Virus record (IMG/VR): IMGVR_UViG_2690316273_000023
Coordinates: 1 to 6,086 of that record
Length of the DNA: 6,086 nt
Source of the DNA: a virus
Lineage: Duplodnaviria; Heunggongvirae; Uroviricota; Caudoviricetes
Reading direction: 5' to 3' (one strand)
A model generated the notes under the pieces. The model did no database searches. It was given only the letters and a program-made list of their open reading frames with translations, and had not been told where the DNA came from. This document shows positions 1 to 6,086 of this stretch, piece after piece. Numbering within the stretch: the first letter of the stretch is position 1; the number at the start of each line of letters is the position of its first letter. Made by a program: the position numbers and the translations under genes.

Positions 1-474
1 ATGTACAGTCCGGTACAAATAGCCAATAAATTCATAACGTTGGGAAACCAACATCATAATCCTCTGACCCACATGCAACTTCAGAAGCTTACTTATATTG
101 CCCATGGTTACTATTTAGCATTAACAGGTAAGCCTTTGCTCAATGAATGTGTCTCCGCGTGGAAGTACGGTCCAGTTATTCCTGGAATGTACGATGCTTT
201 CAAAGACTATGGGAATAAACCTGTTACGAATGTAGCAGTAGCTCCTTTTGGTGGCATCGTTACTATGGATCCGCAAGCAGAGAGCATTATAGGGGCTGTT
301 TATAAGTTTTACGGCTCGAAAAATGGAATTGAGTTATCAACTCTAACTCATATGCCAGGTACGCCTTGGTCACAAGCTTATAATGGTATTGGCTCGTCGA
401 TCATCTCAAATGATGCGATCAAGGCTTATTATCATGATTTATTGAATAACCGACAGCAATGTCAGGGCCTCTGA
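1..474 (+). CDS. Panacea-domain (DUF4065) protein, PanA/SocA/GepA-like putative antitoxin
   Basis: 157-aa ORF from the ORF track. N-terminal half (YSPVQIANKFI...LTHMQLQKLTYIAHGYYLALTGKPLLNECVSAWKYGPVIPGMYDAF) matches my recollection of the conserved DUF4065/Panacea core (LQKLLY..G..L...G.PLF.E...AW.YGPV.P..Y). The ATG sits at window position 1, so RBS and promoter cannot be seen and the true start is unverified. GC visibly lower than the rest of the window. Confidence 0.72.
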   Translation: MYSPVQIANKFITLGNQHHNPLTHMQLQKLTYIAHGYYLALTGKPLLNECVSAWKYGPVIPGMYDAFKDYGNKPVTNVAVAPFGGIVTMDPQAESIIGAVYKFYGSKNGIELSTLTHMPGTPWSQAYNGIGSSIISNDAIKAYYHDLLNNRQQCQGL

Positions 475-496
475 AAAAGTAATATTCAGGGATGAC

Positions 497-1045
497 ATGT
501 CTCATAATTCAGATATCTATAAACTGATCGGAGCGGCCGCAGGTGTTGAAAATGGTCGCTCTGAAGCATCCTTAAACTCTACTGACAGTCAAGAGCAGGC
601 TTTTGAATCCGCATTTGAGCCGTCTAATCATGAGCGCGATGATGATTCTTCTTCAGAAAATAAGGCTATTCTGGAGGCAGAAGAGTTTGGTTCTAATACT
701 GGTGCATTGCATGAGTTTATGCAGCAGAACAGAATGGACAGTCTTCAAGCTCAGCTTGATATGCTCAAGTCACAAGTACGGGATAAGATAGCTGACGCAA
801 CTGGTAAAGAAATAGACAATGAGCTTCGGACAAAAATGGCCTCATTCACGGTTTGGTTTATGTCGTGTTGGTGCTTATTTGTAGCCGGAATGTTTGTATC
901 ATTTCTTATTGCTCATGAAGGAAAGCCGCCAGTTGAAGCAATCGTTGCATTACTGGGAACAAGTACAATTAGTATTGTTGGTTTGGTTGGCTTCGTTGTT
1001 AGTGGATTGTTCAAATCTAGAAAAGATGGCGATAAAGAAAAATAA
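497..1045 (+). CDS. Membrane protein with acidic N-terminal region and two C-terminal TM helices; candidate PanA-associated toxin/effector
   Basis: 182-aa ORF starting 22 bp after the upstream stop, with a purine-rich AGGGA 4-5 nt before the ATG. N-terminal ~110 aa are acidic, Ser/Glu-rich and low-complexity with a short predicted coiled segment (QQNRMDSLQAQLDMLKSQVRDKI). The C-terminus has two hydrophobic stretches (FTVWFMSCWCLFVAGMFVSFLIA and AIVALLGTSTISIVGLVGFVVSGLF) and a basic tail (KSRKDGDKEK). No family recognised with certainty; DUF2335-like is possible. Confidence 0.6.
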   Translation: MSHNSDIYKLIGAAAGVENGRSEASLNSTDSQEQAFESAFEPSNHERDDDSSSENKAILEAEEFGSNTGALHEFMQQNRMDSLQAQLDMLKSQVRDKIADATGKEIDNELRTKMASFTVWFMSCWCLFVAGMFVSFLIAHEGKPPVEAIVALLGTSTISIVGLVGFVVSGLFKSRKDGDKEK

Positions 1046-1066
1046 CCCGTATATACACGGGTTATT
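1031..1066 (-). terminator. Intrinsic terminator at the end of the minus-strand operon, possibly bidirectional
   Basis: Perfect 10-bp inverted repeat aataacccgt (1041-1050) / acgggttatt (1057-1066) with a 6-nt loop. On the minus-strand transcript it is followed immediately by UUUCUUUAUC (complement of 1031-1040) and lies 13 nt downstream of the stop of the 1079-1351 gene. The plus-strand stop TAA (1043-1045) lies inside the left arm; on the plus strand the T-rich stretch only begins ~20 nt after the stem. Confidence 0.6.
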
Positions 1067-1078
1067 CATGGTCTTAGT

Positions 1079-1351
1079 TTAGTTATATTTTTGTTTATCC
1101 GTTCTGACCTTTTCCCACTCAGCTCGTCCTTCTTCTCGTCTTTTGTCTATGTATTCCGCAAGATCCTGAATATTGATGCAACGTTTTGCTTTTTGTGATG
1201 TGCCGATGCGATATGTTGGAACGGGCAACTTACAAGCGTTTGCTTTTGCTTCTGCCGTGGCTGGACTCATGCCAAAGTACTTTTGGCTAACTGCTGAGAG
1301 TTCAATGTTAGGGGTATTGAATTCAGCCATCAGTAAAAACAAGGTGTTCAT
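1079..1351 (-). CDS. PrtN-family / excisionase-like small DNA-binding protein
   Basis: The ORF-track start at 1378 is a GTG with no SD. The internal ATG at 1351 is preceded by GGAG with a 6-nt spacer and gives a 90-aa protein MNTLFLLMAEF...QDLAEYIDKRR, which matches my recollection of the PrtN / excisionase-like family. It is the last gene of the operon, followed by the terminator. Confidence 0.6.
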   Translation of the reverse strand: MNTLFLLMAEFNTPNIELSAVSQKYFGMSPATAEAKANACKLPVPTYRIGTSQKAKRCINIQDLAEYIDKRREEGRAEWEKVRTDKQKYN

Positions 1352-1387
1352 AATTTTCTCCATCAAAACCGGCTGCACCCGGAAAAA

Positions 1388-1960
1388 TCATAATTCTGTG
1401 CTGGTGGCAGGAATTAATTTCTGCCAGATAGCTGAAACATATTTTGCCTGATGACGAGCATCAGCCAGGGCGTTGTGCCGTTCGCCATCGAAAGGCATGT
1501 CCATTTTGGGGTCGAATCCGATGGAACGCCCAAGCGTAACGATCGTGCGTACATCGTGATCATTCCAGTACGCCCATGGGCAGATTTGTCCTGCTCGTTC
1601 ATAAGCTCCGCGTAAAATTACGTTGTCGAAGGTGGCCCCGTTACCCCAAACTTTTAAATATTTCGTATTGCCTGCGTGCCGATTAATGAAATGGCTCAGT
1701 TCAGAGAGTGCATCGCTGATCGACAAAGTATCATCAATACAGATTGCAGCTCGTGCTTCAGGGCTTTGTTTCAACCACCACAGGATGGTATCGCCGTCAG
1801 GTGTGGCCCCTTGCTCCATAGCACTGTCCAGGCTGACAACCGTATAGAATGCTTGTCCGATGTCTCCGGTTTCTGGAGTGAAGAACACCGCGCCAATGGA
1901 AACGAACGGTGCATCCTTATTTTTCCCCATCGTCTCAAGGTCGATCATTAAGTTGTTCAT
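1388..1960 (-). CDS. DEDDh-type 3'-5' exonuclease (DnaQ-like fold, phage Rv2179c-like exonuclease family)
   Basis: Motifs read directly from the translation: Exo I (MIDLETMG), Exo II (WGNGATFDNVIL) and Exo III (HNALADARHQAKY, H-x4-D). ATG at 1960 preceded by GAGGTG; the ORF-track start at 1963 is a GTG. Start overlaps the upstream gene's stop as TGATG. Confidence 0.8.
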   Translation of the reverse strand: MNNLMIDLETMGKNKDAPFVSIGAVFFTPETGDIGQAFYTVVSLDSAMEQGATPDGDTILWWLKQSPEARAAICIDDTLSISDALSELSHFINRHAGNTKYLKVWGNGATFDNVILRGAYERAGQICPWAYWNDHDVRTIVTLGRSIGFDPKMDMPFDGERHNALADARHQAKYVSAIWQKLIPATSTEL

Positions 1961-2586
1961 CACTTCACCTCATGCGGCGGTTCCGGTAGCGGCATCCAGT
2001 GTGATGGTATCCACGACGCACCAGGTATTACCCACCCATCATTAGCGTCAGGATGCCCCGGGATGTAAGTCGCCCATTTCATTCGCCAGTCACCTTTCCT
2101 GTCAAACTCCCTGGCAACAAGAACGGCTGTTTTGCTATCCGGCATTCGCTCACTACAGCTTATCCAACCGCCCGGAATTACCGGAGAGTTGCCATTTACA
2201 TCGAAGTTTGGCTCTGCGTCCTGAACTAGGAGGATGTAACCATTCTTGGCTGTATCAAGTTCTAACGCCTCGGTGACGGTACCGAAATAGCGATTACCTA
2301 AATCAGCATCACAAGTGCTTACATCAATGGAAACTTCCATCCCTTCGATTAATTCTGGCAAGTTGTAAGTTTGGCTTACAGGCTCTGCTTCCAGTGATGC
2401 CAGTGCAATTCGTGCCAGCTCACGCACAACTTCAGGGGGCGCGTAACGGTCATTCAGGTCATCCCACAGGCGTAGCATGTTATCGCTACCAGGGTGAACA
2501 TCCTCGTTAGTTCCGGCAAGCGCACTAATAACCTCATCGGCTGCTTCAATAATTTTCTGTGCCTGTTCTCTGGTAATAGTGGTCAT
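1960..2586 (-). CDS. DUF551-domain phage protein
   Basis: 208-aa ORF. C-terminal region (GGWISCSERMPDSKTAVLV...GWVIPGASWIPSHWMPLPEPP) carries the W-rich signature ending in WMPLPEPP that I recall for DUF551. N-terminal MTTITREQ...ELARIALASLEAEP module is shared with the 2796-3191 gene. Confidence 0.72.
   Translation of the reverse strand: MTTITREQAQKIIEAADEVISALAGTNEDVHPGSDNMLRLWDDLNDRYAPPEVVRELARIALASLEAEPVSQTYNLPELIEGMEVSIDVSTCDADLGNRYFGTVTEALELDTAKNGYILLVQDAEPNFDVNGNSPVIPGGWISCSERMPDSKTAVLVAREFDRKGDWRMKWATYIPGHPDANDGWVIPGASWIPSHWMPLPEPPHEVK
2389..2428. repeat. Dispersed direct repeat, copy 1 (encodes the ELARIALASLE motif)
   Basis: ttccagtgatgccagtgcaattcgtgccagctc at ~2391-2423 matches ttccagcgatgccagagcaattcgtgccagttc at ~3059-3091, 30 of 33 positions identical. 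Both copies lie in the same frame of adjacent minus-strand genes. Confidence 0.7.
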
Positions 2587-2596
2587 TTGTTATGCC

Positions 2597-2794
2597 TCAA
2601 TACACGAAATCTGTTTTAAATTCATGGTTACATTCTGGACAGCATGTTTCGTAACCTTTTATTTCTTCACATGCCTGTTTAGCTCCAGAAAACTCCCAGA
2701 AATCAGCGTCACAAAGCAGATCGAAATTGTGACCGCATTTTGGGCATTCGGTATCAAGTGACAGATTCCAGTAAGCAGTGGTGTTTTTATCCAT
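2597..2794 (-). CDS. Small zinc-ribbon protein (CxxC...CCxxC)
   Basis: 65-aa product MDKNTTAYWNLSLDTECPKCGH...ETCCPECNHEFKTDFVY with two Cys pairs. ATG at 2794 is preceded by AAGGAG with a 6-nt spacer, and the upstream gene's stop is at 2796-2798; the ORF-track start at 2827 lacks an SD and would overlap the upstream gene. Confidence 0.55.
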   Translation of the reverse strand: MDKNTTAYWNLSLDTECPKCGHNFDLLCDADFWEFSGAKQACEEIKGYETCCPECNHEFKTDFVY

Positions 2795-2795
2795 A

Positions 2796-3191
2796 TCAGT
2801 CTCCTTTCCCCTGAAGCATAGCGGCACGGCAGGCGTTCCAGCCTCTCACCTCTGCAATAGCGGCAACAGCATCAACCGCGTACATACTAAGAGGATTAGG
2901 CATTGGTTTTTCTTCCGGTACTACTTGCGCTGGAGGGGCGGCGTAAATGCCCTCTATCACTAAATGTTTGCGCTCAAAATCATCTGGCTCTCGATGATAT
3001 ACGTAACTCCAATCACCAAGGTTATCATTGCGCCTGCAACGGAAACCTATCGGCTCGACTTCCAGCGATGCCAGAGCAATTCGTGCCAGTTCTTCCGCTT
3101 CTTCTGCTGGCAGTACAACGTTGCTACCCGGTCCGTATGTTTCGCGCCACTGCTTGATTGTCAGCAGTCGCTCTTTGGTAATAGTGGTCAT
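2796..3191 (-). CDS. Hypothetical phage protein sharing an N-terminal module with the DUF551 protein
   Basis: 131-aa ORF MTTITKERLL...EELARIALASLEVEP...; AAGGTG 8 nt upstream of the ATG. The shared N-terminus is visible at the DNA level (see repeat features). C-terminal part unrecognised. Confidence 0.6.
   Translation of the reverse strand: MTTITKERLLTIKQWRETYGPGSNVVLPAEEAEELARIALASLEVEPIGFRCRRNDNLGDWSYVYHREPDDFERKHLVIEGIYAAPPAQVVPEEKPMPNPLSMYAVDAVAAIAEVRGWNACRAAMLQGKGD
3055..3097. repeat. Dispersed direct repeat, copy 2 (encodes the ELARIALASLE motif)
   Basis: Partner of the 2389-2428 copy. A second shared block covers the two start regions: ctggtaatagtggtcat at 2570-2586 and ttggtaatagtggtcat at 3175-3191. 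Confidence 0.7.
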
Positions 3192-3193
3192 AG

Positions 3194-3385
3194 CTATTTC
3201 ACCTTAATCTCAACATTTCGCAGCTTTAGCTCTACTGGCAGGTCTGACTTTCCGGTTAATGCTAATGCGAGATTTTCTGGAGTAATGAGAGCAGTTATTG
3301 TTTTCCCCCTCGCCAGACGAATAATCATTCGTATCTCGCAATCGTCACATGCTCCCGGTCGAACAATTGAGATTTGTCCGTTCAT
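3194..3385 (-). CDS. Small hypothetical phage protein (63 aa)
   Basis: Internal ATG at 3385 (MNGQISIVRPGACDDCEIRMIIRLARGK...) is preceded by AAGGAG and lies 1 nt after the upstream gene's TGA (3387-3389). The longer ORF-track version (3194..3547) would overlap the upstream Ea22-like gene by ~160 nt and is rejected. Confidence 0.5.
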   Translation of the reverse strand: MNGQISIVRPGACDDCEIRMIIRLARGKTITALITPENLALALTGKSDLPVELKLRNVEIKVK

Positions 3386-3386
3386 C

Positions 3387-4094
3387 TCACTCTCCTTTGA
3401 TGCGAATGCCAGCGGCGCGCTCGGCTTCACTTTGTTCCCAAAACCACTTGTGAAGCGCCATAAGCTTTTCGTCAATCGGTGCATATTTGCGATTAAAGTA
3501 GGCCTGAGCATCTTTCTCAGATTCGTCCGGTAATTCGCCAGGGCCAAACAGTGTGTTATAAATCCATGCTAGTCCGCTCTTAGCGTCGCCAGTTGCCTGC
3601 CATTCGATAATGGCAGCCTGCATGACCAGAATGTTTTTCCCGATTAATAGGTCCAGTTCTTTGTACCGGTTGCGGATGTATGCATTCTCGCTTTGTAATT
3701 TTGCGTTGCGCTTTTCTGAGGCTTCAAGTAACGCCTGCTTATCGCGTAGCGCTTCTTCCAGTTCAGCAACATGGCACTCACTATCAATAAGGTTGTTCTC
3801 TGCGGCTTCCAGCTCAACACGCAGCTTCCCTACCGTTAGCGCAATATCCTCGTTCTCCTGGTCACGGCTTTTGATGTATTGCTGGTTTCTTTCCCGTTCA
3901 TCCAGTAGTGCCAGCACGGTTTCTGGTCCGGCCAGAAATTTGAAGGCGTTGAGCGCATCAATATCCACACCGTAATCTTTAAGTTCCTGTTCACTTAACA
4001 AATCATCATCAGCTGGCAACATTAACAGGCGTTCCATTGCTGGAATTGCACGTTCCGCCGCCTCACGCAGTGCCTGATAGTCAATCTTGCTCAC
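3387..4094 (-). CDS. Ead/Ea22-like coiled-coil protein
   Basis: 235-aa ORF MSKIDYQALREAAERAIPAMERLL... with a long heptad-like Glu/Leu/Ala-rich central region (ELEAAENNL...ELEEALRDKQALLEASEKRNAKLQSENAYIRNRYKELD). Matches my recollection of Ea22-like proteins of lambdoid prophages. Start overlaps the upstream stop as ATGA. Confidence 0.68.
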   Translation of the reverse strand: MSKIDYQALREAAERAIPAMERLLMLPADDDLLSEQELKDYGVDIDALNAFKFLAGPETVLALLDERERNQQYIKSRDQENEDIALTVGKLRVELEAAENNLIDSECHVAELEEALRDKQALLEASEKRNAKLQSENAYIRNRYKELDLLIGKNILVMQAAIIEWQATGDAKSGLAWIYNTLFGPGELPDESEKDAQAYFNRKYAPIDEKLMALHKWFWEQSEAERAAGIRIKGE

Positions 4095-4780
4095 TGGTTG
4101 CCTCCTTTTCGAAGCTGGGCGGCGATATCTTCGAGAACGCCATCAGAGAATGAGCGGTCAAAATCGCCTTCCGGCGCATTAGCCATAAACTCAGTAGAGG
4201 TAAGAATCATCCGGGCAATATCCGCGGCGTTCTTCGCAGTATCATCAATAAAACCAGCTTCCCAGGCAGCCAGCATTCTGTTCGCCACAAAATAAGCGCC
4301 TTCCTTGCGTGCTTCAGTCTTCACTTCAGCCAGAAAAGCATCGGTGGCTGGGGTGTCGATATTAGGCAGAAGCGCATAATCGCAAATCGTATCGATCGCA
4401 GGATCACAACAGTCATCCTCGTTGCGTGGTCGTTCGCCAACCTTCGTTGACGATTGCATGATGATTCCCCAGCAAATACTATCGACCTCTTCGCTCCATC
4501 CATCGCAAGCATCACCGCGATAGTCGTCAATTGCAGCCTCAGCCGATTCGATAGCTTCCTCAGCAGTTTTGTGCCATTCGAAATTATGCTCAGAGCCATA
4601 TGAGAAATATGAATGTCCCGCCTTCAGCCCCGCATTCTCCGCCGCCAGCGCCGCGCACTTGGCCTCCGCTTCAGCAAATTTACGCACCAGATATTCAGCA
4701 TTTGTTTCGTTCACTTTCAGATCTCGCGGTACACATTTCCCGCGAAGAAACCCTTCCATTTCGAAAACATTCATGCGCAT
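4091..4780 (-). CDS. Ead/Ea22-like family protein (second, divergent copy)
   Basis: 229-aa ORF with N-terminal coiled-coil segment (NAEYLVRKFAEAEAKCAALAAENAGLK) followed by an acidic, Cys/Trp-containing domain. GGAG 8 nt upstream of the ATG at 4780. Family call is from recall and only moderate. Confidence 0.55.
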   Translation of the reverse strand: MRMNVFEMEGFLRGKCVPRDLKVNETNAEYLVRKFAEAEAKCAALAAENAGLKAGHSYFSYGSEHNFEWHKTAEEAIESAEAAIDDYRGDACDGWSEEVDSICWGIIMQSSTKVGERPRNEDDCCDPAIDTICDYALLPNIDTPATDAFLAEVKTEARKEGAYFVANRMLAAWEAGFIDDTAKNAADIARMILTSTEFMANAPEGDFDRSFSDGVLEDIAAQLRKGGNQ

Positions 4781-5307
4781 TTGCGTAACTCCGATAACTC
4801 GTTAAAACGTTCCATAAACATCCCGTAGGCATGGCCTGGTGACAGTGGAATAACTTTGAACATCTCTGTTGCCGGGATGCCTTCCAGTACAGGCCAGAAA
4901 GAGCCATCATCAAGCCCGAGATCGCGGCGTTCGGTTGCCAGCATGATGAGATCGGCATATTTCACTGGCGTGCTCATAACAGGAGGTAACCCGTATTTCT
5001 CACGGATTACGGCGTCTATTTTTTCTTCCATCCGTTTATAGTCAGGAAGAAGTCGTTTCAGTGGCGCGGGGATGTCCTGGCAATATGCTTCTGTTGCATC
5101 ATGCATTAACGCTTCAAAAGCAAATTCCTGCGGCACCAGCTGGCTGCAAAGCACCGCATGCTGGGCGACACTGTAGAAGTGTGAAAGATGTCCTGCAAAG
5201 CGACAGATATTTGAAAGGGAAACTGCGATATCGTTAATCACGATGTCGTCTTTATTTATCTTGTCATAATAAAAATGCTTCCCGGAAAAAGTTTTAATAA
5301 ATGACAT
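4771..5307 (-). CDS. yfdR: HD-domain phosphohydrolase, YfdR-like (5'-deoxynucleotidase family)
   Basis: His...His-Asp metal-binding signature read from the translation (HLSHFYSVAQHAVLCS ... ALMHDATEAY). Internal ATG at 5307 (MSFIKTF...) is preceded by GGAG with a 6-nt spacer and gives 178 aa, which I recall is the length of E. coli K-12 CPS-53 YfdR. The ORF-track start at 5319 is a GTG lacking an SD. Confidence 0.78.
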   Translation of the reverse strand: MSFIKTFSGKHFYYDKINKDDIVINDIAVSLSNICRFAGHLSHFYSVAQHAVLCSQLVPQEFAFEALMHDATEAYCQDIPAPLKRLLPDYKRMEEKIDAVIREKYGLPPVMSTPVKYADLIMLATERRDLGLDDGSFWPVLEGIPATEMFKVIPLSPGHAYGMFMERFNELSELRKCA

Positions 5308-5401
5308 TTCGTTCTCCACTTTATATGCGCTGCACCGCGCTGAATTCTGCTAAAAGGAAGCTCTCACCATCCGGTGATTATTGAGTTAATTACGTTTCCA
5401 T

Positions 5402-5423
5402 AAATGCCCCCGCAGGGGCATTT
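5402..5423 (-). promoter_or_regulatory. GC-rich stem-loop in the yfdQ-like/yfdR-like intergenic region
   Basis: aaatgcccc (5402-5410) / cgca loop / ggggcattt (5415-5423): 9-bp perfect stem with a tetraloop, 13 nt downstream of the yfdQ-like stop on the minus strand. No U-tract follows on either strand. Confidence 0.4.
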
Positions 5424-5435
5424 GCAGTAATGAAA

Positions 5436-6086
5436 TCAGGCGGTGAAAGTACCAATAAAGGTTTCTACTTTGCTGTCTTTGAATTTCTCAACAAGCAGAT
5501 CACGAAATTCGTTAGCCATTTCTTCCTGCATCGCTTCCAGCTGAATAATGCGCAGAACCAGTACAGGACGATCGCCAGTGATAATTCTGAGGCGTAATTT
5601 AAACGGACGTTCTTTCAGGCCTTCAAACGGAACGCATTTAAATTCAAATGCCACTGGCATAATGTCTTTGGTTTTCGCTTCGACAGACTCCATCAGGGAG
5701 CGTTTGCCGCTGAAGTCATTGTCTTCAAAATCAGCGGTCTGGTTTGCTTCAATTGTGATTTTACGGACTGCAGCAGCCGCTTTGGTTGCCTGAATGGTGT
5801 CACCATTAGCATCAAAGCCCACAAGGTAGTCGGCCCAGTCTTCAATCCATTCTGCCAGTGACTTCTGGGAGTTACGCTCGCCATTAACAGACAACAGAGC
5901 AGAAAACGGTGCTGTCTTTTTCAGTTTGAGGGTGGCGGTGTTATCTGCGTGACCTGGTTCATCAATAGTACCCAGGTTAAGCACACTGACGGCTCGCATA
6001 TTATCGGCATCGATAAAGCAGCGGGTGCCTTCATCTGCAAGATCTTTAGAATAACGGGTAAAGTCATCGATGCTGGCAGTGGAAAG
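5436..6086 (-). CDS. yfdQ: DUF2303-family protein, YfdQ-like; partial, 5' end lies beyond the right window edge
   Basis: I translated the minus-strand frame upstream of the ORF-track Met at 5999 and it stays open to position 6086 (...[35 protein letters not shown]...), so the gene is truncated by the window. The position immediately upstream of the yfdR-like gene matches the yfdQ-yfdR order I recall for CPS-53. Family assignment is by synteny and recall, not by a motif I can verify. Confidence 0.55.

Follow-up and report, generated by a model that had tools for sequence, protein, structure and literature searches.

The known gene pair yfdQ–yfdR of a lambdoid Escherichia coli prophage, and yfdP as the constant partner of yfdQ

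The window, meaning the whole 6,086-nucleotide stretch analyzed here (IMG/VR record IMGVR_UViG_2690316273_000023, positions 1 to 6,086), is the leftward, minus-strand early operon of a lambdoid Escherichia coli prophage of the class without a recombination module. The right-hand part of the window contains two genes, yfdR and yfdQ, and a hairpin in the spacer that separates them:

4771..5307, minus strand: yfdR-like gene encoding a 178-residue HD-superfamily phosphohydrolase of the YfdR/Atu1052 subfamily (from identity to the K-12 protein and PHROG_318)
5402..5423, minus strand: GC-rich hairpin AAAUGCCCC-UGCG-GGGGCAUUU followed by AU, located within the spacer, 13 nucleotides past the yfdQ stop codon (from the sequence)
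5436..6086, minus strand: yfdQ-like gene, the 3′ 651 nucleotides (216 codons and the stop codon), DUF2303 (from translation, Pfam, PHROG, and identity to the K-12 protein)

The matches of both genes at these minus-strand coordinates are not due to chance. The yfdQ–yfdR feature is real, was correctly described in the original prediction made from the sequence alone, and is already known and annotated. The two genes have names, are found in over half of the complete E. coli genomes, and have been characterized biochemically and genetically, so that their presence has little discovery value. The new point is that yfdP, a small gene upstream of yfdQ, is its constant partner across bacteria, with yfdR as an optional neighbor.

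The yfdR gene starts with an ATG at position 5307, with GGAG 7 nucleotides upstream, and its stop codon is at positions 4771–4773. The protein is identical to YfdR of E. coli K-12 in 175 of 178 residues (98%) and matches PHROG_318, annotated as deoxyribonucleoside 5′ monophosphate phosphatase, with an E-value of 4e-110. By contrast, its score against the Pfam family YfbR-like (PF12917) is 24.3 bits, just under the threshold of 25.9 bits, and that against the NCBIfam YfbR equivalog NF003009 (EC 3.1.3.89) is 19.9 bits, with a cut-off of 122 bits. Because the scores fall below the Pfam threshold and far below the equivalog cut-off, YfdR is classified on its sequence as a relative of YfbR in the YfdR/Atu1052 subfamily rather than as a YfbR orthologue. 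The nearest relative with a solved structure is Atu1052 from Agrobacterium tumefaciens (PDB 2gz4, E-value of 3.7e-28 with the family profile). The affinity of K-12 YfdR for nucleotides is much below that of YfbR and a dNMP (deoxynucleoside monophosphate) phosphatase activity has been reported, according to Zimmerman 2008 as cited in PMC4776307.

E. coli YfbR (PDB 2paq) has the HD fold, and its ...HDxxExxxGD.P.P.K motif can be aligned with YfdR. In the profile alignment to 2paq, the YfdR segment ALMHDATEAYCQDIPAPLK is positioned on the YfbR segment AMYHDASEVLTGDLPTPVK. Residues H69 and D70 of YfdR are located on the metal ligands H68 and D69 of YfbR, E73 on the catalytic E72, and D78 on D77, which recognizes deoxyribose. 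An alignment of 26 homologues with identities down to 35%, including versions from Pseudomonas, Proteus, Morganella, and Serratia found in this analysis, shows that H50, H69, D70, D78, and D119 are invariant and that E73 is nearly invariant. The active site of YfdR looks functional. The clear H...HD signature described originally is thus borne out by H50, H69-D70, and D119, with E73 and D78 in addition, and the catalytic residues are intact. The assignment to the HD superfamily is supported by the invariance of H50, H69, D70, and D119 and by the alignment of the HD segment to YfbR. The K-12 homologue is annotated as a 5′-deoxynucleotidase, in agreement with the original prediction.

The yfdQ gene is cut by the end of the window, and about 58 codons of its 5′ end lie beyond it; the full-length open reading frame (ORF) in near-identical loci encodes 274 residues. 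The portion of YfdQ encoded in the window is 98% identical to residues 59–274 of K-12 YfdQ. The DUF2303 domain expected for this protein was confirmed by the profile hidden Markov model (HMM) of PF10065, which matches over model positions 55–269 with an E-value of 1.9e-72 and 244 bits (gathering threshold of 26.6), and the match to PHROG_210 has an E-value of 4.8e-97. One relative of YfdQ identified by sequence has a solved structure: PDB entry 9o7m, named "YfdQ Protein", contains 36 chains. It shares about 99% sequence identity with a hypothetical protein from Xanthomonas phage MET23-P3, and its identity to ORF37 of Xanthomonas phage CP2 is 93.5%; the protein belongs to a CP2/MET23-P3-like Xanthomonas podophage. 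A literature search found no publication for 9o7m, and there is no near-identical PDB entry for the YfdP homologue or the capsid protein of the CP2/MET23-P3 phage group. The structure was considered as a possible virion component, and this was rejected: the major capsid protein of CP2 has no near-identical PDB entry, so that 9o7m does not belong to a set of virion reconstructions. The 36 chains are probably those of a homo-oligomer or of many copies in a crystal, and not those of a virion map. A virion-associated DUF2303 protein has been described in one mass-spectrometry report on Burkholderia phage JC1. A fold search gave no informative match for YfdP or YfdQ. In the CP2 locus (L083, positions 3068–3892), the yfdQ homologue is located between a yfdP homologue and a gene for a DUF1351-like protein, followed by genes for Erf, an exonuclease, and a single-stranded DNA-binding protein (SSB).

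The spacer between yfdQ and yfdR is 128 nucleotides long (5308–5435), and its folding has a z-score of −2.6 relative to shuffled sequences. A hairpin at the same position after the yfdQ stop codon is present in ten diverged Enterobacterales loci, from E. coli, Salmonella ST64B, Superficieibacter, Enterobacter, Morganella, Proteus, Providencia, and Xenorhabdus. Their stems vary in sequence, with compensatory changes in 6 of 10 pairs in this small, hand-trimmed sample. The hairpin of Morganella has a canonical T-run, whereas that of E. coli is followed only by UUUAU. A simple terminator scan of positions 4600–6086 did not flag the hairpin, because the T-run is short. A promoter scan of the same region found no promoter-like site, and an Rfam scan of the window gave nothing relevant, with one sub-threshold chance match. 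The hairpin is probably an intrinsic terminator of low strength or a weak attenuator, or it stabilizes the 3′ end. It may modulate transcription as a partial terminator, gating yfdR and the downstream genes separately from yfdP–yfdQ. The last 10 nucleotides of yfdR overlap the start of the next gene, both in the window and in K-12. Because of this overlap, and because the hairpin-containing spacer follows yfdQ, yfdR is translationally coupled to its downstream genes and is set apart from yfdPQ, rather than coupled to yfdQ.

The cluster yfdP-yfdQ-yfdR-yfdS-yfdT of the K-12 prophage CPS-53 (KpLE1) has the same 128-nucleotide spacer with the hairpin, with a mean column identity of 97%. Unlike the K-12 cluster, the window has mosaic genes downstream of yfdR: codons 1–35 of yfdS are followed by sequence of the Eae type, and yfdT is absent. 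CPS-53 is a cryptic remnant, whereas the window is from a complete lambdoid prophage type. The phage closest to positions 4771–6086 of the window is phiSTEC1575-Stx2k, with a DNA identity of 99.6%. Of 49 matching phage records, 46 span at least 80% of this query at about 96–100% identity, among them mEp460, cdtI, and Stx2c, Stx2a, and Stx2k converting phages, and the YfdQ protein of phage SfV is 99.3% identical to that of the window. The yfdQ–yfdR DNA was found in 3012 of 5426 complete E. coli genomes, where RefSeq labels the products "YfdQ family protein" and "yfdR: 5′-deoxynucleotidase". In phiSTEC1575-Stx2k, a cI-like repressor gene is followed by yfdP and three small ORFs, which precede yfdQ; the corresponding yfdP position of the prophage lies past the end of the window. 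The placement of the pair at the head of an accessory operon was therefore an artefact of the window edge.

A trio of yfdP, yfdQ, and a yfbR-like gene has been described as common in the early-left operons of lambdoid phages (Genome Res 2025, PMC12315714). The "no Rec module" phages LLS, ST64B, and phiNP in that study have the same three-gene cluster at the same operon position. It was argued there that the trio is unlikely to encode a hidden recombinase, because it co-exists with a full Rec module in phage ArgO145. The present analysis differs in that the conservation of the partners is quantified; ArgO145 has yfdP–yfdQ without a YfdR-like gene within 5 kb.

The 80 near-identical viral contigs represent a single lineage of 99–100% identical E. 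coli loci and are not an independent test of co-occurrence. In 79 of the 79 contigs with enough downstream sequence, yfdR lies 131–132 nucleotides past the last yfdQ codon matched by tblastn, a count that says little because the contigs are one lineage. In an independent census, one genome per species was scanned with the DUF2303 profile and the neighbors were scored by HMMs. This gave 65 loci from Enterobacterales, Pseudomonadales, Oceanospirillales, Alteromonadales, and Pasteurellales, and from a few metagenome-assembled genomes labeled as Betaproteobacteria or other phyla. A YfdP homologue is located directly upstream of the DUF2303 gene on the same strand in 63 of the 65 loci. By contrast, a YfdR-like gene is present downstream, always on the same strand, in 30 loci. 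The YfdR-like gene directly follows the DUF2303 gene in 15 Enterobacterales loci, with apparent gaps of 26–132 nucleotides between called ORFs, the yfdR starts being approximate, and is two to four genes away (0.6–2.5 kb) in Serratia-like and Pseudomonas loci. No YfdR-like gene was found in the DUF2303 loci of Marinobacter, Alcanivorax, Hahella, Kistimonas, Haemophilus, two Xenorhabdus, several Pseudomonas, and others among the 65. Dereplication at 60% DUF2303 identity leaves 34 clusters, of which 31 have YfdP and 8 have YfdR.

Where yfdQ and yfdR occur together, the pairwise identities of their products co-vary (Spearman coefficient of 0.81), which fits long co-inheritance inside one operon. 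The order with yfdR downstream of yfdQ recurs in Enterobacterales, Pseudomonadales, and Pasteurellales. Among annotated phages, the complete trio is present in Salmonella ST64B and Pasteurella Pmp13, and yfdP–yfdQ without yfdR in Xanthomonas CP2, Vibrio 44E38.1, and the Stx2a phage ArgO145. A YfdR-like gene without yfdP or yfdQ is present in Yersinia YeP3 and in Burkholderia vB_FKKS2; that of vB_FKKS2 is located between the genes for a DNA ligase and a DNA polymerase. Phage records with a YfdR-like gene number 324 and those with DUF2303 number 184. Phages of Bacillus, Caulobacter, Rhizobium, Stenotrophomonas, and Ruegeria account for at least 121 of the 324, a bound based on the absence of these five genera from the ten commonest first organism-name words among the DUF2303 records. 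The two genes occur jointly in at least 46 phage records, compared with about 1.2 expected by chance from the two record counts. In enterobacterial prophages, among them the 79 contigs and those of the 3012 E. coli genomes, yfdQ and yfdR are found together far more often than chance would predict. The proposal that the two form a conserved functional unit holds in part: they occur together above chance and both are needed for the replication phenotype described below, but the association is not obligate. The pairing of yfdQ with yfdR is lineage-restricted, and the constant partner of YfdQ is YfdP.

The YfdP–YfdQ pair is present in temperate and some virulent phages of Gammaproteobacteria and in a few loci labeled as Betaproteobacteria or other phyla. 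K-12 YfdP is 34–61% identical to the CP2, ST64B, and Vibrio proteins, with 20 invariant columns. The neighbor census places the pair early in a leftward operon. The upstream neighbors in the Pfam census are mostly repressor or helix-turn-helix, PrtN-like, and YqaJ genes, and RecT, Erf, and SSB genes also adjoin the pair upstream. The downstream neighbors are heterogeneous (C5 methylase 9, integrase 9, Rv2179c-like exonuclease 6, SSB 5, and DHHA1 5), and no consistent third partner was found in this census. The yfdP–yfdQ module is thus widespread and tightly linked, yet it is structurally unplaced, although the structure of a YfdQ relative has been deposited. It is possible, though on balance doubtful, that YfdP and YfdQ form a new type of early phage machine that targets the DNA replication of the host or DNA ends, or that serves in counter-defence, and that enterobacterial phages have coupled to the DnaA-binding HD protein YfdR.

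YfdP has about 120 residues and a conserved PTxRGK...E(E/D)xT motif; examples outside the window are at positions 6187–6567 (minus strand) of locus L001 and 9605–9967 (plus strand) of locus L002. It carries the Pfam accession PF27127.1 in precomputed database annotations, a family newer than the Pfam release searched here. A few single-member database proteins contain both PF27127 and PF10065 and may be fusions or assembly artefacts. In four Pseudomonas prophage loci (L138, L143, L144, and L146, at about 6800–9300), the DUF2303 gene is followed by two genes encoding about 240–270 and 360–400 residues, and then by the YfdR-like gene. Every junction in these loci is a 4-nucleotide overlap, which suggests a tightly coupled four-gene block. 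The gene of about 390 residues in the block may encode a C-5 DNA methylase, a common downstream match in the Pfam census.

The function of the K-12 genes has been approached through replication initiation. K-12 yfdQRST was isolated as a multicopy suppressor of the over-initiation of hda-185 (Noguchi & Katayama 2016, PMC4776307). The multicopy block of initiation at oriC needs both yfdQ and yfdR, together with yfdS or yfdT, and inhibition by the gene set extends to wild-type, dnaAcos, seqA, DARS, and diaA backgrounds. Purified K-12 YfdR binds domain I of DnaA in a Phe46-dependent manner, and competes moderately with DiaA and DnaB; oriC replication in vitro is inhibited by extracts (PMC4776307). 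The statement that the role of the pair in a phage early operon is not established is therefore only partly true: DnaA binding has been demonstrated, as has the oriC block with multicopy expression. The nucleotide-pool theme proposed for the pair has to be corrected, because the experimentally supported joint function of YfdQ and YfdR is inhibition of DnaA-dependent replication initiation and not nucleotide-pool control.

The window carries orthologues of the CPS-53/KpLE1 yfdQ and yfdR genes, and there is about an even chance that the YfdR product, with partners, blocks host initiation as a form of host takeover. YfdR is an HD-fold metal-dependent phosphohydrolase with a complete active site and a weak reported 5′-deoxynucleotidase activity, and it would, like its K-12 counterpart, bind DnaA domain I at the Phe46 surface to which DiaA and DnaB also bind. 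Together with YfdQ and one further early protein, it would block initiation at oriC. The native role of the block would be in takeover after induction or infection, keeping initiation of the host chromosome off while the phage replicates. YfdQ would be required for the block in vivo, as it is in K-12. It belongs to an older two-gene yfdP–yfdQ module of phages and prophages of Gammaproteobacteria, of which yfdR is a frequent but separable downstream neighbor. Initiation shut-off is most likely the native function in a live phage. The evidence for DnaA binding and for multicopy inhibition comes from the K-12 proteins, and those of the window, at 98% identity, are predicted to act likewise.

Several observations weigh against this host-takeover proposal. 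The DnaA effect has been seen only with multicopy expression, deletion of yfdQRST has no initiation phenotype, and the authors allow for an overexpression artefact (PMC4776307). Pull-downs in the same study showed no binding of YfdQ to YfdR or DnaA. The window has no close homologue of yfdS or yfdT, one of which is required; it contains only codons 1–35 of yfdS and a divergent DUF551 protein. Furthermore, the catalytic residues of YfdR are invariant and YfdR-like genes occur in unrelated phages without YfdQ (those of Bacillus, Caulobacter, and Rhizobium). Because of this strict conservation and the many phages that have the gene without YfdQ, catalysis itself appears to be under selection, which argues against a model based on DnaA binding that neither needs nor explains a catalytic site. 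The DnaA-based and enzymatic readings are compatible and not exclusive.

The invariance of the full catalytic set in homologues down to 35% identity could also mean that YfdR is mainly an enzyme, a dNMP 5′-phosphatase that alters the pool of deoxynucleotides at an early stage of the lytic cycle, with YfdQ being irrelevant to it. Such an enzyme might dispose of dNMPs or remove the precursors of nucleotide-based immune signals, in the manner of Dmp of phage T5, for which the same activity has been reported and which counters Kongming by depletion of deoxyadenosine monophosphate (bioRxiv 10.1101/2024.12.20.629578). Lone YfdR-like genes in the replication or nucleotide modules of unrelated phages, such as that in the ligase–polymerase interval of vB_FKKS2, are consistent with this explanation. 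However, it is unlikely, given the low nucleotide affinity of K-12 YfdR, the lack of homology to Dmp, which makes the precedent an analogy only, and the result of the PADLOC search, in which YfdR, as well as YfdQ and YfdP, had no match. Furthermore, the window shows no sign of a dNMP kinase or of base modification, either of which would provide a use for such an enzyme.

The adjacency of yfdQ and yfdR might instead be an inherited gene order without joint function, in which YfdP and YfdQ form an independent large-oligomer module for early DNA metabolism and yfdR is simply the cassette that comes next in the early-left operons of enterobacterial lambdoid phages. The census is in line with this, since yfdP accompanies yfdQ in nearly all loci and yfdR in fewer than half of them, and DUF2303 lineages without YfdR include Xanthomonas CP2, Vibrio podophages, ArgO145, Marinobacter, and Alcanivorax. 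The conserved hairpin that separates yfdQ from yfdR, while yfdR overlaps its downstream gene, and the 36 chains of the Xanthomonas-phage YfdQ homologue in 9o7m point in the same direction; no homologue of YfdP or YfdR was found in the PDB alongside it. By contrast, the genetic data require both yfdQ and yfdR for the multicopy initiation block (PMC4776307), and yfdR follows yfdQ in three orders, always on the same strand and co-diverging with it, which makes the absence of a joint function rather improbable. The K-12 copies are in a cryptic prophage and their deletion has no replication phenotype (PMC4776307), which would be expected if yfdQ and yfdR were decaying remnants without current function. 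This is very improbable, as the ORFs are intact and 96–100% conserved in inducible and plaque-forming phages (mEp460, SfV, cdtI, and Stx2c and Stx2k converting phages), the catalytic residues are invariant, and the family is widespread and diverged, yet syntenic.

The proposed initiation block has analogues in outcome. SirA of Bacillus subtilis and the P protein of phage lambda are small factors that bind DnaA and block host initiation, and SirA and YfdR both use the Phe46/Phe49 surface of DnaA domain I (PMC4776307). However, the folds are unrelated: lambda P binds domain III of DnaA, whereas YfdR is folded like an HD enzyme and depends in vivo on partners expressed along with it. T5 Dmp is an early-expressed phage enzyme with reported dephosphorylation of dNMPs, and it shows that dNMP depletion can serve as counter-defence (bioRxiv 10.1101/2024.12.20.629578). 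Its action against Kongming would, by analogy, give the counter-defence idea for YfdR a concrete test. Dmp has no Pfam match, its reported active-site residue is D22, and no homology between Dmp and YfdR was detectable (hhalign probability of 0.3%). Moreover, T5 is virulent and degrades host DNA, which the temperate phages with yfdQ–yfdR are not known to do.

Two other minus-strand genes of the window are related to the downstream part of the K-12 cluster:

4091..4780, minus strand: "Eae"-type gene encoding 229 residues (from the ORF list and PHROG_14548/614)
1960..2586, minus strand: gene for a DUF551 protein of 208 residues (from Pfam DUF551, E-value of 3.5e-20)

The first 35 codons of the "Eae"-type gene (4676–4780) are 100% identical to K-12 yfdS in a tblastn comparison, and unrelated sequence follows. 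The mosaic junction at this gene start is a recombination breakpoint inside a coding region, just beyond the 10-nucleotide overlap with yfdR. The DUF551 protein is the only other protein of the window with a domain in common with K-12 YfdS; however, the two have no BLAST-level similarity, and tblastn of YfdS matches the window only at 4676–4780. The homology search found no match for yfdT in the window. The DUF551 ORF and a second minus-strand ORF at 2796–3191 encode near-identical MTTIT(K/R)E N-termini and a common motif ELARIALASLE(A/V)EP. Each of them has a match to PHROG_60, and the C-terminal DUF551 domain is present only in the longer of the two. The N-terminal module looks like it has been duplicated or shuffled.

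At the distal end of the early-left operon, a gene for an Rv2179c-like 3′–5′ exonuclease (1388–1963, minus strand, E-value of 5.5e-74) is located directly upstream of a PrtN-like excisionase gene (1079–1378, minus strand). The same exonuclease family is also encoded downstream of yfdPQ in six of the diverse DUF2303 loci. A plus-strand gene at 1–474 encodes an antitoxin-like protein with a SocA/Panacea domain (DUF4065; Pfam E-value of 5.9e-18, with the NCBIfam model SocA_antitoxin below its cut-off). It is followed after 22 nucleotides by a 182-residue ORF (497–1045, plus strand), the product of which has, as judged by eye, an acidic N-terminal half and a hydrophobic C-terminal part. These two genes, oriented opposite to the early operon, may constitute a PanA-type toxin–antitoxin or an accessory pair.

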